Part shown: piece by piece, positions 27,205-32,641 of the stretch
Layout of the letters: each line of letters opens with the position of its first letter
Position numbering within the stretch: position 1 is the first letter of the stretch
From: Ruminiclostridium sp.
Lineage (GTDB): Bacteria > Bacillota > Clostridia > Oscillospirales > Oscillospiraceae
Length of the DNA: 64,000 bases
Assembly: GCA_017435425.1 (NCBI GenBank)
Contig: JAFSFC010000009.1
Location: 10,050-74,049, forward strand
Direction of reading: 5' to 3'
The notes under the pieces: generated by a model
What the model saw: the letters and a program-made list of their open reading frames with translations, nothing else
The model's database searches: none
Told to the model about the DNA's origin: nothing
Translations under genes and position numbers: made by a program

Positions 27205-28602
27205 ATGGAACCTATGCGAGTACGGGAGCTTCTCGCCGCCACCGGCGGGACCCTCTTGGGAAACCCTGACAATCAGGACCTGGAGGCGGTCATCACCGCC
27301 GTGGAGACCGACAGCCGTGCCGCCCATGATGGGGCCCTCTTTGTGGCCCTCCGGGGTGAGCAGACCGACGGCCACCGGTACATCTCCTCTGCCATGGCCA
27401 ACGGCGCAGCCGGCTGCCTGGTGGAGGATGTCCCCGAGGAATTCCTCCCCGGCAAGTTCTACATCCAGGTCCCCAGCACCCTGGAGGCCGTGGGCCATGT
27501 GGCCAAGGCCTACAAGGAGAAGTTCAAGATCCCTGTGATCGGCGTCACCGGCAGCGTGGGCAAGACCACCACCAAGGACATGATCGCCGCTGTTCTGGGC
27601 CGGAAGTTCCGGGTCCTGAAGACCGAGGGCAACTTCAACAACGAGCTGGGCCTGCCTCTGACCCTCTTCCGCCTGACCCCCAAGGACGAGATCTGCGTGC
27701 TGGAAATGGGCATGAGCGCCCTGGGGGAGATCGACTACCTCACCAGGATCGTGGTCCCCGATGTGGCGGTCATCACCAACATCGGCGATGCCCACATCGA
27801 GAACCTGGGCAGCCGGGAGAACATCCTCAAGGCCAAGTGTGAGATCTTCAACTATATGTCCTCTGCCGGCCTGGCTGTCCTCAGCGGGGACGATGCCATG
27901 CTCCGGGGCCTGGACGGCCAGGTCACCCCCAAGACCGTCCTCTGCGGCGCCGTGGGCCAGCCCCCCTACCAGGCCAGCAACATCAGCCAGCTGGGGGCCA
28001 GGGGCATGGAGTGCACCGTGAAGACCCCCAAGACGGAGTTCACCGTCACCGTGCCCGCCCTGGGCAACCACATGATCTATCCCGTCCTCATGGCCTGCGC
28101 CATCGGCGAGTGGTTCGGCCTCACCGGGGAAGAACTGGCCGAGGGCATCCGGGCTTTTGTCCCCACCAAGATGCGGATGAACGTGGTCCGCAAGGGGGAG
28201 GTCACCATCCTGGACGACGCCTACAACGCCAATCCCCAGTCCATGCGGGCTGCGCTGGAGGTCCTGTCCCAGAGCGGCGGCGACCGGCGGGTGGCCATCC
28301 TGGGCGACATGTTCGAGCTGGGCGTGCTGGGCCCTGAGCTCCACCGTGGGGTGGGCGAGTTCGCCGGTACCGTGGGCAACATCGATGCCCTTCTGGCCGT
28401 GGGCGACCTGGCCTGGAACCTGTACGATGCCGCCTGCCAGTCCAGCATTCCCGACGTGATCTACGCCGAGGACAAGGAGGAGGCCAAGAAGTACCTGCCC
28501 GACCTGGTCAAGCCCGGCACGGTCATCCTGGCCAAGGCCTCCCGAGGCATGCACTTTGAGGAGCTGGTCCTTGAGGTCAAGCGGTTAGCACCTAACGAAT
28601 AA
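27205..28602 (+). CDS. murF: UDP-N-acetylmuramoyl-tripeptide--D-alanyl-D-alanine ligase
   Basis: TDSR, GSVGKTTTK, GNFNNELG, EMGM, DDAYNANP, LGDMFELG and KASRG. Confidence 0.96.
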   Translation: MEPMRVRELLAATGGTLLGNPDNQDLEAVITAVETDSRAAHDGALFVALRGEQTDGHRYISSAMANGAAGCLVEDVPEEFLPGKFYIQVPSTLEAVGHVAKAYKEKFKIPVIGVTGSVGKTTTKDMIAAVLGRKFRVLKTEGNFNNELGLPLTLFRLTPKDEICVLEMGMSALGEIDYLTRIVVPDVAVITNIGDAHIENLGSRENILKAKCEIFNYMSSAGLAVLSGDDAMLRGLDGQVTPKTVLCGAVGQPPYQASNISQLGARGMECTVKTPKTEFTVTVPALGNHMIYPVLMACAIGEWFGLTGEELAEGIRAFVPTKMRMNVVRKGEVTILDDAYNANPQSMRAALEVLSQSGGDRRVAILGDMFELGVLGPELHRGVGEFAGTVGNIDALLAVGDLAWNLYDAACQSSIPDVIYAEDKEEAKKYLPDLVKPGTVILAKASRGMHFEELVLEVKRLAPNE

Positions 28603-28622
28603 ATAGTGCTGTACTGCGAGGT

Positions 28623-28752
28623 TACAACCCCTCCGACTCGCCTGACGGCGAGCCACCTCCCCTTACACAGGGGAGGCAGAGGCGAGTGCGAAACCTCAGG
28701 CTCCCTTGTGTAAAGGGAGCTGGCACGGCGAAGCCGTGACTGAGGGATTGTA
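28623..28752. repeat. Intergenic palindromic repeat family M, copy 2
   Basis: tacaacccctccgac...ttacacagggg...ccttgtgtaaaggg...gagggattgta. Confidence 0.85.
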
Positions 28753-28818
28753 GCCTGCCGATTCCAACCAACGTACAAAAAAGCGCCCGCCAAGGGCGGG
28801 CGCTTTTCAGCGAAAGAA

Positions 28819-29877
28819 TTATCCCAGATTGCTGAAGTCCACGATCATCTTCTTGGGGGTGTGCTTGATGAGCTCCTCCAGGGTCTCCTCATAGGGAGCG
28901 CAGGCGATGGCACGGTCGGTGATGTAACCGGTCACCAGGAAGGCGGGGACCACGTCGTAGGCGGGGGTCCAGCCCTTGGCATCGCCGCAGTCCAGGCCGT
29001 CGGTGACGGAAGCGGGATCCCCCTCTGCGGTGCCGAAGGCGGTGCCGTCGGGGATCTCCAGGTCGATGTCGTCAGAGTTCATGACGGCATAGAAGGGGAT
29101 GGAGTGGAAGTAGCAGGCGATGGCCAGCTCATAGGTGCCCACGGGGGCCTTCAGGTCGCCGGACTTGGCGGCCAGGATGCCATCGGCCAGGACCACATGT
29201 GCCCCCTGGCGTGCCAGGTAAGTAGCGGCGGCGTGGTCGGGGATCAGGGTGAAGGGGACCTTCTCCTTGGTCAGCTCCTGGGCAGTGACGGTAGCGGCTG
29301 CCAGAGAGGGACGGCCTTCCAGAATGCCCAGCTGCTCGATCTGACCCCGCTTGACGCCCCGGCGGGCAATGCCCAGTGCGCCCCAGGGAGAGGCAGAGTG
29401 GAACACGCCGCCGTCTGCACGGACCAGCACACGGGTGCCCTCGCTCATCATATCGGTGCCGTTGCGGCAGATGTTGCGGGATGCCACCACCTGCTGGCGC
29501 TCGTAGGTCACGGCGGTGGCCAGGATGGCAGTGAGGCGGTCTGCGTTCTTCAGATAGGCCTCGGGGGGATTCTTCATAAAGTTCATGGCATGTGCCATGT
29601 CACGGTGGCCCTTGCGGCTTTCCATAAGCAGGTCGGCGGCGGCGTTCAGTGCCTCGTCATAGGCCTCGGTGAGCTGCTTGTCCTGGTGTTCTACGGCGGC
29701 CAGGGCGAAGCCGTAGGCACCGGCGATGGCGGCGATCTTCTCGTCCAGGATGACGCCGGAGGAGAGGGTGTTGGCCACGGCCTTCACGTTGTCGCAGTCG
29801 ATCCAGGATTCCTCCTGGGGATACTTGGTCTGGTCCAGGAGAGACAGGACCTGACCCTGCCACTGAAGTGCGATCAT
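28819..29877 (-). CDS. MtnA/eIF-2B-like protein with a degenerate active site
   Basis: LLDQTKYP, EGRP, VGTY..A...IPFY and PAYDVVP..LVTGYITDR match the MtnA fold. The catalytic motifs are replaced (see findings). Confidence 0.75.
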   Translation of the reverse strand: MIALQWQGQVLSLLDQTKYPQEESWIDCDNVKAVANTLSSGVILDEKIAAIAGAYGFALAAVEHQDKQLTEAYDEALNAAADLLMESRKGHRDMAHAMNFMKNPPEAYLKNADRLTAILATAVTYERQQVVASRNICRNGTDMMSEGTRVLVRADGGVFHSASPWGALGIARRGVKRGQIEQLGILEGRPSLAAATVTAQELTKEKVPFTLIPDHAAATYLARQGAHVVLADGILAAKSGDLKAPVGTYELAIACYFHSIPFYAVMNSDDIDLEIPDGTAFGTAEGDPASVTDGLDCGDAKGWTPAYDVVPAFLVTGYITDRAIACAPYEETLEELIKHTPKKMIVDFSNLG

Positions 29878-30010
29878 AGGGGGTTACCTCCTGTGTTTAT
29901 AGAGTTAAAATCAGCGATAGCTGTCCTAGTGGAGCTATCATATCATAATTTCAGGGCCAACGCCACTCCTGATTGGGAAAAATGTTGACCCTGACAGAGG
30001 AAGTCAATGC

Positions 30011-31894
30011 ATGATCGATATTGCAGTAAGAGATATCATAAAAGAATACGAGGTGGGTGAACCCGTTCTCAACGGCCTCACCTTCCAGGTGGACACCGGC
30101 GAGCGGGTGGGTATCCTGGGCCGCAACGGCTCGGGCAAGACCACCCTCTTCCGGATCCTCACCGGCCAGGAGCATGCCGACAGCGGCGATGTGATCATCG
30201 CCCCCGGTAAGCGCTTAGGCCTCATCTCCCAGATCCCCGTCTACCCCGTGGGCTTCACGGTGGAGGACGTCCTTCGTACGTCCTTCGACCACTTAAAGGC
30301 CATGGAGGAGGAGATGGCCGCCCTGTCCGAGCAGCTCTCCGGGGGAGACAAGGACCTGCTGGCCCGGTACGACCGGCTCCAGGTGGCCTTCGAGACCGGG
30401 GGCGGCTACGAGACCGAGACCCGGCTGGAGAAGGTCTGCTCCGGTCTGGGCATTGAGAAGGCCTTTCGGGAGAAGTTCTTTGCCGACCTGTCCGGCGGCG
30501 AGAAGACCCGGATCAACCTGGCCCGCCTCATTCTGGTGGACACCGAGATCCTTCTCCTGGACGAGCCCACCAACCACCTGGACTTAAACGCCACCGTCTG
30601 GCTGGAGGAGTACATCAAGACCTACAAGGGCACCGTCCTCATCATCTCCCACGACCGGTACTTCCTGGACCGGACCATCGACCGGGTCATCGAGGTGCGG
30701 GACGGCAAGGCCGAGTTCTATTCCGGCAATTACTCCTTCTACGCCGTGGAAAAGGAGAAGCGGTACTTAGAGCAGCTCCGTCAGTACCAGAAGGAGCAGG
30801 CCGAGCTCAAGCGTCTGTCGGACACCGTCCGCTCCATGCACGAGCACAACACCGAGCTCCTCCACAAGCGGGCCTTCTCCATTGAAAAGCGCATGGCCAA
30901 GATGGCCGGCACCGCCCGGCCCACCAAGGTCAAGAAGATGAACGCCAAGTTCGGCACCGCCGAGTTCCACGCCGACGACCTTTTGGAGATCAAAAACCTG
31001 GAAAAGGCCTTCGGTCCCCAGAAGCTCTTTGACGATGTGACCCTTCGGGTGGAGGACGGGGATCGAATCGCCCTCTTAGGCGACAACGGCACCGGCAAAT
31101 CCACCCTCTTAAAAATCATCCTGGGGGAGGAACTCCAGGACGGGGGCACCGTCAAGCAGGGCGGCACCGTGAAGACCGGCTACCTGCCCCAGCAGGTGAA
31201 GTTCCAGGACCCCAGCCTGACCCTCTTTGACACCATGCTGGCCGAGGCCAACTGCACCGCTCAGCAGGCCCGGGATCGCCTGGGTACCTTCCAGTTCCAG
31301 GGGGAGGACGTCTTCAAGACGGTCTCCGTCCTGTCCGGCGGCGAGCAGAGCCGCCTGCGGCTGTGCATTCTCATGGATGAGAAGGTGAACTTCCTCATCC
31401 TGGACGAGCCCACCAACCACCTGGATCTGGAGTCCAGAGAGTGGATCGAAAATGCCGTGGAAGACTATGAGGGGACCCTCCTCTTCGTCTCCCACGACCG
31501 ATACTTCATTGACCGCTTCGCCACCCGGATCTGGACCCTGGAAGGGGGGAAGGTCTCCGACTTCAAGGGGGACTACACCGCCTACCAGGCCATGCGGGAG
31601 CGGATGAAGACCCTGGCCCCTCCCCCCAAGAAGGAGGAGAAGGTCAAAAAGGAAAAGCCCAAGCGCACCGGCGGCACCAAGCAGCTGAAAAAGGAGCTGG
31701 CAGCAGCCGAGAAGCGCATGGAAAAGCTGGATCAGCTCATGGAAGAGCTGAACGCCCGGAAGGAGGAAGCGGCTTCCGATTACCAGAAGCTCCAGGAACT
31801 TATGGACCAGGAGACCGCCTACACCGAGGAGTACGATTCCCTCATGGAAAAGTGGGAGGAGCTCTCCACCGCCATCGAGGCGGAGGAAGGATAA
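30011..31894 (+). CDS. ABC-F family ATP-binding protein
   Basis: Two NBDs (GRNGSGKTT/LSGGE/LDEPTNHLD; GDNGTGKST/LSGGE/LDEPTNHLD), no TM segments, C-terminal coiled coil. Confidence 0.93.
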   Translation: MIDIAVRDIIKEYEVGEPVLNGLTFQVDTGERVGILGRNGSGKTTLFRILTGQEHADSGDVIIAPGKRLGLISQIPVYPVGFTVEDVLRTSFDHLKAMEEEMAALSEQLSGGDKDLLARYDRLQVAFETGGGYETETRLEKVCSGLGIEKAFREKFFADLSGGEKTRINLARLILVDTEILLLDEPTNHLDLNATVWLEEYIKTYKGTVLIISHDRYFLDRTIDRVIEVRDGKAEFYSGNYSFYAVEKEKRYLEQLRQYQKEQAELKRLSDTVRSMHEHNTELLHKRAFSIEKRMAKMAGTARPTKVKKMNAKFGTAEFHADDLLEIKNLEKAFGPQKLFDDVTLRVEDGDRIALLGDNGTGKSTLLKIILGEELQDGGTVKQGGTVKTGYLPQQVKFQDPSLTLFDTMLAEANCTAQQARDRLGTFQFQGEDVFKTVSVLSGGEQSRLRLCILMDEKVNFLILDEPTNHLDLESREWIENAVEDYEGTLLFVSHDRYFIDRFATRIWTLEGGKVSDFKGDYTAYQAMRERMKTLAPPPKKEEKVKKEKPKRTGGTKQLKKELAAAEKRMEKLDQLMEELNARKEEAASDYQKLQELMDQETAYTEEYDSLMEKWEELSTAIEAEEG

Positions 31895-32326: not shown

Positions 32327-32641
32327 ATGTCTGAGAACAAGAACAACAACGTCATGACCACCGAGGAAAAGATGAAGGAACTCTTCGACCTGATGGACGC
32401 CAAGGCAGCTGCCGGTGAACTGAACGAAGTGGAGAACGACGGGAAGTTCGACGAGGAGTTCAAGAAGGAAATGGAAGAGGCCATGAGCCCCATGTCCGCC
32501 TCTGAGGTGGCCGGCTATGAGTACTCCATGATGATGAACCAGTTCGAGGCCATGCTGGAGGACTGGAACCGCCGTGAGGCCGAGGAGCAGGCTGCTGCAG
32601 CAGCCGCCAAGAAGGCAGCCGAGGAAGCCAAGGGCGAGTAA
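32327..32641 (+). CDS. Hypothetical acidic, Met-rich protein coupled to prfA
   Basis: AAGGAG RBS, strongly host-biased codons, TAATG overlap with the prfA start. Confidence 0.75.

Follow-up and report, generated by a model that had tools for sequence, protein, structure and literature searches.

S-methyl-5-thioribose-1-phosphate (MTR-1-P) isomerases, which make up the MtnA family, are members of the same superfamily as ribose-1,5-bisphosphate isomerase (R15Pi) and share their fold with the eukaryotic eIF2B subunits alpha, beta and delta. In R15Pi, the 1-phosphate is bound by Arg22, Arg65, Gln166 and Lys215, the sugar is contacted by Asp204, Asn214 and Lys215, and the catalytic residues are Cys135 and Asp204; replacement of the Cys by Ser or of the Asp by Asn halts isomerization, and replacement of the Cys by Ala abolishes substrate binding (PMC5789824). 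In the eIF2B-alpha subunit, sugar phosphates are still bound and have a regulatory role (PMC8187479), and pairs of an isomerase and a class II aldolase are typical of the dihydroxyacetone phosphate (DHAP) shunt or 5-deoxyribose salvage (PMC6079011, PMC10986504). Here we analyze a gene, denoted X, that encodes a degenerate protein of the MtnA fold at positions 28819..29877 (minus strand) of a 64,000-nucleotide stretch of Ruminiclostridium sp. (assembly GCA_017435425.1, contig JAFSFC010000009.1, positions 10,050 to 74,049), hereinafter the window. As judged from sequence comparison, X is a pseudoenzyme or a neofunctionalized paralog of the IF-2B/MtnA fold, with an unusually clear evolutionary history. 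Our literature search found no paper describing a bacterial catalytically dead MtnA; what is new here is the ancestry of X in a fixed chromosomal slot, the gradual character of its erosion, and the presence of a second mtnA gene, paired with an aldolase gene, elsewhere in the genome.

Family assignment and replacement of the active site

The 352 aa protein X (ATG start, followed by a stop codon) matches the Pfam IF-2B domain (PF01008) over residues 49-322 with 111.2 bits, above the gathering threshold of 22.4 bits. Both NCBIfam MtnA models match X from end to end, with 160.3 bits for TIGR00512 and 179.4 bits for NF004326, under the respective cut-offs of 279 and 271 bits; for comparison, a canonical MtnA from a related genus (L007, see below) scores 447 and 464 bits, and the canonical MtnA encoded at C30 in the window's own genome scores 401 and 439 bits. 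The best solved relatives of X in HMMER searches are MtnAs (1t9k with an E-value of 1e-32, then 6a34 and 2yrf), and the eIF2B chains in the PDB yield weak matches with E-values from 1e-4 to 0.7. An AlphaFold2 model of X, built from a 38-sequence alignment, has a mean predicted local distance difference test (pLDDT) score of 90.4 and a predicted template modeling (TM) score of 0.87. Inside the protein, confidence drops only at residues 181-200, which correspond to the former LQGARLT phosphate loop (pLDDT blocks of 81 and 67); it is low also in the last residues of the tail. In a Foldseek search of the PDB with this model, MtnA comes first (6a34 with a TM score of 0.86, 2yvk with 0.82 and 1t9k with 0.80; E-values from 1e-25 to 1e-27), followed by R15P isomerases (TM score of ~0.65-0.70) and eIF2B subunits (~0.6-0.67). 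We are confident that X keeps the predicted two-domain IF-2B/MtnA fold.

We mapped the motifs with HMMER and MAFFT alignments of X to solved and canonical MtnAs, and the roles of the residues were taken from R15Pi, a homologous enzyme, rather than from the MtnA structure paper. The initial annotation of the window had described X as an MtnA/eIF-2B-fold protein with replaced active-site motifs and had proposed profile and structure comparison with MtnA as a check; the comparisons described above bear out this assignment, and every change that it listed is present in these alignments. The VRGAPAIG motif is replaced by ILDEKIAA (residues 43-50, 29728..29751 on the minus strand, as are all features of X), with the loss of the 1-phosphate Arg and of backbone amides and the gain of acidic residues. 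In RKGHRDM (residues 88-94, 29596..29616), which replaces RPTAVNL, Arg88 is kept and the Thr, Ala and Asn are lost. The VRADGG segment (residues 152-157, 29407..29424), in place of THCNAG, has Ala154 at the position of the catalytic Cys and is followed by the clade-specific F159-H160, and EGRPSLAA (residues 187-194, 29296..29319), in place of ETRPxLQG and with lowered model confidence, has Ala193 instead of the phosphate-binding Gln. Finally, GADRxxxNGDxANKIGTY is replaced by DGILAAKSGDLKAPVGTY (residues 232-249, 29131..29184), with Ile234 at the position of the Asp, Ala-Pro instead of Asn-Lys, and a new invariant D/E232-G233. Among the four 1-phosphate binders, the equivalents of three are Leu44, Ala193 and Pro245, and the second Arg, Arg88, is the sole equivalent left in X of all the mapped catalytic, phosphate and sugar contacts.

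The degenerate relatives of X include two subgroups, A, to which X belongs, and B. The position of the catalytic Cys is occupied by Thr in 80% of subgroup A; in the consensus of the sampled subgroup B sequences, the Cys is kept within L/V-S-C-R/T-G-G, and a member from the window's genus, L022, has Ala. In the ungapped register, the catalytic Asp aligns with Ile234 in X and with Leu in subgroup B; this register agrees with the predicted strands at 228-232 and 235-237, and in it D232 coincides with the invariant Gly of GAD. One HMMER alignment, to 6a34, instead pairs LAD (residues 230-232) with GAD by means of a two-residue insertion, in which case the Asp would be kept. Because the ungapped register fits the predicted strands, we take the catalytic Asp as lost in X, with a conserved Asp or Glu two residues upstream.

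Beyond the individual motifs, a set of 127 canonical MtnAs has 63 positions with an invariance of 90% or more, and the subgroup A consensus departs from them at 35, so the changes in X are not a matter of chance. The mean entropy of these 35 positions is 0.97 bits, compared with 0.81 bits for ordinary positions and 0.32 bits for the 28 retained ones; given that the replaced positions vary like ordinary ones, the former active site as a whole is no longer specially constrained. The scaffold residues Q16, P20, G140, E187, P190, E201, D214, NGD and G247 are retained in X, and several features that are common to subgroups A and B are new: F159-H160 (L-A in canonical MtnAs), D/E232-G233 (canonical G-A), P213 and L242. 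Both subgroups also share a C-terminal tail motif, K-x-hydrophobic-hydrophobic-x-F/L, which is absent in canonical MtnAs and in the early-branching degenerate proteins P0113 and P0116; in X, the tail spans residues 339-352 (28822..28863), with pLDDT values falling from 58 to 39. In the surroundings of the pocket, subgroup A has lost five basic residues and acquired as many as five acidic ones (positions 45, 46, 93, 155 and 232). The same trend is seen in whole proteins: the median isoelectric point and net charge are 4.8 and -16 in subgroup A, 5.1 and -12 in subgroup B, 5.65 and -7 in the canonical MtnAs that occupy the same chromosomal slot as X, and 6.0 and -4 in other canonical MtnAs.

Origin in the slot of a canonical MtnA

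The neighbors of X are housekeeping genes, namely, ddl, murF, an ABC-F ATPase gene, prfA, sua5/yciO, coaE, an M18 peptidase gene and ftsK, and the initial annotation was right that no methionine-salvage genes are adjacent. According to the gene calls and synteny, X occupies a slot bordered on the left by murF (27205..28602, plus strand), which is convergent with X, and on the right by the ABC-F gene (30011..31894, plus strand), which is divergent from X across a 133-bp spacer. A search across 151 genomes from the GTDB family of the window, with tblastn searches using the flanks as a second step, showed that this arrangement is conserved in L004 and in L006-L016. There, the flanking proteins mostly share 53-63% identity with those of the window (47% for murF in one locus), and the slot protein shares just 28-40%. 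A fully canonical MtnA with every motif in place (VRGAPAIG, SRPTAVNLFWAL, THCNAG, ETRPLLQGARLT and GCDR..NGDFANKIGTY) is encoded in the slot in ten other genera (L007-L016). Nine of these ten genomes contain no further IF-2B-family gene, and the tenth (G094) has a second, unlinked copy of the canonical type. Given that the slot holds a canonical and mostly sole MtnA in ten other genera, X descends in place from the ancestral enzyme and is the positional ortholog of the ancestral canonical MtnA of this lineage.

Judged by the names of the homologs, the family that ancestrally keeps MtnA between murF and the ABC-F gene is Oscillospiraceae, within which the degenerate clade comprises the window's GTDB genus (Evtepia-like) and related metagenome lineages. 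The conserved neighborhood (ddl-murF, ABC-F, prfA, sua5 and coaE) was considered as a functional clue and dismissed, given that in other genera the canonical enzyme is found in the same surroundings; the neighborhood predates the degeneration and is therefore uninformative on the new function.

Purifying selection and stepwise erosion

The initial annotation had named relaxed selection, indicative of decay, as an observation that would speak against it. Instead, X is maintained by purifying selection. In close pairs, Nei-Gojobori estimates of omega, the ratio of non-synonymous (dN) to synonymous substitution rates, for X are 0.18 (window and L017), 0.12 (L018 and L019) and 0.195 (L023 and L024), and those for the flanking murF, abcF, prfA, ddl, sua5 and coaE genes are 0.07-0.19 (the L018/L019 and L023/L024 pairs). 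X and murF have equal dN in close pairs, and in deeper comparisons the value for X exceeds that for murF by a factor of 1.5-2; in the genera with a canonical slot gene, MtnA and murF evolve at equal rates. No internal stops were detected in the 22 degenerate copies from 25 species genomes of the genus. Since purifying selection on X is as strong as on its housekeeping neighbors, X has a function and is not decaying. Thus, X is a homolog of an active enzyme that lacks the key catalytic residues and is under purifying selection, the features by which pseudoenzymes are recognized.

Two maximum likelihood trees were constructed, with 51 and 73 sequences, neither of which contains eIF2B sequences. 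In the 51-sequence tree, all degenerate forms comprise one clade among the slot-canonical MtnAs (support of 100/95 if the basal P0113 is left out and 96/76 if it is counted) and branch off as a ladder, with P0113 first, then P0116, and then subgroups B and A; the MtnA encoded at C30 belongs to a separate clade with P0105 (97/88). In the 73-sequence tree, two additional Oscillospiraceae proteins, P0128 and P0158, join the degenerate clade with a Shimodaira-Hasegawa-like approximate likelihood ratio test (SH-aLRT) support of 97. This clade is the sister group of the slot-canonical MtnAs, and the two together, with no members other than Oscillospiraceae slot MtnAs and degenerate forms, have SH-aLRT support of 99; X is placed inside this assemblage and is not grouped with eIF2B. 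Synteny supports a shared origin for some of the degenerate forms, in that the P0128 gene is divergent from an ABC-F gene and the P0116 gene abuts the 3' end of murF; P0158 is encoded in a different setting, and the contigs of P0113 and P0116 are just 1.1-1.4 kb, in the case of P0113 too short for a verdict.

The less eroded relatives show that the decay from MtnA was gradual, with TIGR00512 scores of 447 and 429 bits for the two slot-canonical proteins tested (L007 and L011), 262 bits for P0128, 252 bits for P0113, 176 bits for P0116, 160 bits for X and 151 bits for L006 of subgroup B. In P0113, the earliest branch, the Cys, the Asp, the Asn-Lys, the Gln and both Arg residues are gone, and ETRP, GARL, NGDF and ALATGG are still present; this pattern implies that the catalytic and ligand-binding residues were lost first and the scaffold motifs eroded later.

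Among the best 150 representatives from a survey of 15 billion proteins, there are further MtnA-like lineages with dead sites outside the X clade, namely, P0126, P0159 together with P0165, and P0140 together with P0188. The well-supported branches force at least three dead-site origins, the X clade included, with long branches making this count a rough one. As a speculative and rather doubtful possibility, 'pseudo-MtnAs' may be an unrecognized recurrent class in prokaryotes. The genes for P0140 (L030 5001-6047) and P0165 (L031 625-1686) are independent dead-site MtnA-like genes on unrelated metagenome contigs; one of them immediately follows a gene for a PNP_UDP_1 nucleoside phosphorylase, and the other immediately precedes, and overlaps, a RelA/SpoT gene. 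Among the related sequences, there is also a 209-aa fragment, P0096, from a 1.2-kb ENA contig that matches both PF13490 (zf-HC2 anti-sigma) and PF01008, a combination that probably reflects either a fusion or a chimeric gene call.

The second mtnA gene and a genome without it

The window's genome encompasses two IF-2B-family genes, X and the canonical mtnA at C30:28342-29418, which are unlinked, encode proteins with ~24% identity, and belong to different MtnA clades. Exactly one canonical gene (236-259 bits with PF01008) and one degenerate gene (83-139 bits) are present in 20 of the 25 species genomes of the genus, and the exceptions were attributed to incomplete assemblies. An apparent gene loss in G158 was rejected given that the contig ends 214 bases beyond murF. 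One genome, G167 (99% complete, 40 contigs), carries an intact degenerate slot gene of subgroup B, and in this genome, neither a canonical MtnA nor an aldolase homolog with an E-value of 1e-20 or lower was found. That G167 keeps the degenerate gene alone argues that X does not need canonical MtnA; its function very probably is not MTR-1-P isomerization and would be independent of the presence of the canonical enzyme.

The canonical mtnA at C30 is directly followed by a class II aldolase gene (G000 C30:27689-29418; locus L003 8687-10419), and the two genes are adjacent also in G040, G165 and G157; genomes with a degenerate form almost always have such a phylogenetically separate second mtnA beside an aldolase gene. 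The flanks of the pair differ between the genomes of the genus, which suggests that the pair moves or has been horizontally acquired. No MtnN/Pfs or MtnP equivalog was found in the window's genome, which contains just two PNP_UDP_1 genes, a purine nucleoside phosphorylase of the PNP-I type and a uridine phosphorylase (C38:18448-19188 and C75:6299-6955).

Structure of the X locus

X is preceded, 9 nt upstream of the ATG, by an AGGAGG ribosome-binding site that was read from the sequence (29887..29892, minus strand) and is followed, 11 nt past the stop codon, by an intrinsic terminator that consists of a GC-rich hairpin, which is also obtained on folding, and a T run (28775..28808, minus strand); this terminator makes X a single-gene unit. 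The codon usage is host-like, with a GC content of 0.84 at third codon positions and a correlation of r = 0.92 with the surrounding genes. The full length, ribosome-binding site and host codon bias that the initial annotation had ascribed to X are thus indeed retained, and X has the look of an expressed gene. An open reading frame (ORF) on the opposite strand, 28861-29988 (plus strand, 375 aa), was rejected as its translation is Gly/Val/Leu-rich antisense noise; all the homology and the pattern of synonymous and non-synonymous substitutions fit the minus strand, which identifies the minus-strand frame as the real gene. For riboswitches or leaders upstream of X or the slot genes of its relatives, no Rfam match with an E-value of 0.1 or lower was found in nine loci.

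Beyond the X terminator, the spacer between murF and X (28603-28818) contains a highly structured repeat of ~140 bp (core at ~28620-28760), and the entire 216-nt spacer, terminator included, folds at -119.5 kcal/mol. The repeat yields 47 blastn matches with 85-100% identity, including the match to itself, on at least 13 contigs of the genome and looks like an element of the repetitive extragenic palindrome (REP) or miniature inverted-repeat transposable element (MITE) type. Between the ABC-F gene and prfA, there is a 104-aa ORF without a Pfam match (32327-32641, plus strand), and unannotated genes for proteins of 100-103 aa are found at the same position in L004, L018 and L019.

Possible functions of X

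From the composition of its former active site, X very probably is no longer an MTR-1-P isomerase. We further consider it probable that X is a maintained non-isomerase that derives in place from MtnA, the role of which was taken over by a second copy, and that it acts by binding rather than by catalysis; that X is truly non-catalytic is a part of this reading that seems plausible and that we advance with less assurance. Under this scenario, the second mtnA, together with the aldolase gene, presumably took over the isomerase role and thereby freed the slot copy. The latter lost the residues for 1-phosphate binding and isomerization (Arg to Leu, Gln to Ala, Asn-Lys to Ala-Pro, Cys to Ala and Asp to Ile), the pocket turned from basic to acidic, and F159-H160, D/E232-G233 and the C-terminal tail were gained. 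The outcome most likely would be a pseudoenzyme that binds a partner, or a ligand that is not anionic, through its retained two-domain MtnA scaffold and the new tail. A more specific version, in which X replays in bacteria the step taken by eIF2B and is a metabolite- or protein-binding regulator with an acidic pocket, a docking tail and a partner outside methionine salvage, is offered as a speculative, rather doubtful proposal.

Several observations weigh against the binding-only scenario. The non-catalytic character of X is deduced from the missing residues. Many of the replaced positions are fixed within a subgroup, namely K47, D155, G188, A244 and P245 in A and, in B, C154, G45 and P246, which a new site specific to each subgroup could explain, and His160 and Asp/Glu232, which are new invariant polar residues in or near the old pocket, could be a new acid/base pair. 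The absence of MtnA from G167 is judged from the 99% completeness estimate and not from an empty site, as the genes around the mtnA-aldolase pair are not syntenic. The monophyly of the degenerate forms could be overstated owing to long branches.

Alternatively, X could be a re-tooled enzyme that acts on a non-phosphorylated or cationic substrate, for instance a 5-deoxy or 5-methylthio pentose in free form or an amino sugar, and employs His160 and Asp/Glu232 for acid/base chemistry, a possibility that we regard as unlikely but worth serious consideration. A histidine and a carboxylate are the classic pair of aldose-ketose isomerases such as PGI and TIM, and neither F159-H160 nor D/E232-G233 is found in canonical MtnAs, both being invariant throughout subgroups A and B; moreover, the strong purifying selection on X and a pocket that has changed its charge instead of simply collapsing are compatible with catalysis. 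However, the former active-site positions as a set have lost their extra constraint (0.97 compared to 0.81 bits), the differences between the two subgroups at positions 45, 47, 93, 154, 155, 188, 193 and 245 are not expected of one conserved new chemistry, the polar sugar-contact residues have given way to Ile/Leu, Ala and Pro/Gly, and in the earliest branch the catalytic residues were lost before the scaffold. In addition, His160 lies six residues past the old Cys and, as extrapolated from the R15Pi contacts (PMC5789824), probably at the pocket's far (5') end. An enzymatic role closer to the ancestral one, in which X would still isomerize MTR-1-P or 5-deoxyribose-1-phosphate via alternative residues, appears highly improbable. 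The fold is intact, Arg88, Glu187, Asp214 and the NGD motif are kept, and one alignment can pair LAD with GAD, but the Cys is replaced by Ala or Thr, three of the four 1-phosphate binders and the sugar contacts Asn and Lys are lost, the pocket is acidic, and the scores are far under the curated cut-offs. Furthermore, the Cys and Asp mutants of R15Pi lose isomerization or substrate binding (PMC5789824).

The initial annotation had also suggested that X could be a regulatory partner of a true MtnA. One form of such a partnership would be a heterodimer in which X regulates or stabilizes the enzyme, in the manner of the trypanosome S-adenosylmethionine decarboxylase (AdoMetDC) prozyme. The one-to-one co-occurrence of a canonical and a degenerate gene in 20 of the 25 species of the genus, together with the description of MtnA as a homodimer, lends this proposal some appeal. 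Dead paralogs that activate their live counterparts are indeed known (PMC5201418). Nevertheless, G167, with its degenerate gene and neither canonical MtnA nor aldolase, disfavors this proposal, and a conserved heterodimer interface is less likely for products of unlinked genes from different clades with ~24% identity, so that we consider such a partnership improbable. It is scarcely credible, too, that X is a functionless relic that became redundant after the second mtnA appeared and is slowly decaying. The loss of the catalytic residues and the evolution of X at 1.5-2 times the rate of murF in deeper comparisons are in line with decay, but the omega values of 0.12-0.20 equal those of essential neighbors, and all 22 degenerate copies retain an intact reading frame, which also holds across a clade the flanks of which have diverged to 55-62% identity. 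The retention of the ribosome-binding site, terminator and host codon usage and the gain of new conserved features likewise contradict decay. We therefore continue to favor a maintained protein that probably binds a partner or ligand.

Implications for annotation

In public records, the Evtepia homologs of X are named 'hypothetical protein'; a homolog with 68% identity is present in Evtepia gabavorous, which can be cultivated. The proteins P0128 and P0158, from Oscillospiraceae metagenome-assembled genomes, lack the catalytic Cys, Asp and Lys; P0128 (L028 5001-6026, NCBI MBQ9979996.1) is publicly named 'S-methyl-5-thioribose-1-phosphate isomerase', and so is P0261 (NCBI MBR6811912.1), a partial member of the P0158 cluster. 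P0128 is narrowly over the NF004326 cut-off (279 compared with 271 bits), and in both cases the isomerase name is probably an over-annotation. Because such early-eroded members pass the subfamily cut-off, metabolic reconstructions of gut Oscillospiraceae may wrongly credit these organisms with methionine or 5'-deoxyadenosine salvage.

Comparison with known systems

The closest described relatives of X are the canonical MtnAs (B. subtilis 2YVK/2YRF, T. maritima 1T9K and P. horikoshii 6A34; TIGR00512), with which it shares the fold, the length and, by descent, the chromosomal position. Unlike these enzymes, X lacks the catalytic Cys and Asp, three of the four phosphate binders and the Asn-Lys pair, is acidic, and possesses the new tail, F-H and D/E-G features. 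Ribose-1,5-bisphosphate isomerase (T. kodakarensis 3A11 and P. horikoshii PH0208), from which the map of contacts was derived, is a member of the same superfamily with weak similarity to X (50 bits with TIGR00511 and TM scores of 0.65-0.70), and all its contacts but one Arg are missing in X. Among the MtnA/DrdI isomerases of the DHAP shunt and 5-deoxyribose salvage (PMC6079011, PMC10986504), the counterpart is the mtnA-aldolase pair at C30, which likely replaces the slot enzyme; in contrast to the fully canonical C30 copy, which belongs to another clade, X is not linked to kinase, phosphorylase or aldolase genes.

In the loss of the catalytic residues under maintained selection, X resembles pseudoenzymes that evolved after gene duplication, such as the AdoMetDC prozyme (PMC5201418; for an overview, see PMC5106787), but differs from them in that one genome keeps the degenerate gene without the live enzyme. 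As a natural example of the conversion of an enzyme into something else, this family includes the live ancestor in the slot of sister genera, intermediates, a copy that plausibly freed the slot gene, and a genome with the dead-site form only. To our knowledge, the transition of the eIF2B/MtnA fold from enzyme to regulator has so far been inferred for deep eukaryotic history alone; with X, it becomes testable in bacteria, which, as far as we know, lack eIF2 and the epsilon and gamma subunits of eIF2B. The analogy with eIF2B drawn in the initial annotation is apt: the alpha, beta and delta subunits (PF01008) are, like X, non-isomerase descendants of the fold, and eIF2B-alpha also has Ala or Gly at the position of the Cys and lacks the 1-phosphate binders (PMC5789824). 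Compared with these subunits, X has a separate and recent origin inside the bacterial MtnAs, and its pocket looks acidic rather than phosphate-binding, so that the likeness between X and eIF2B is one of evolutionary route and not of family membership.

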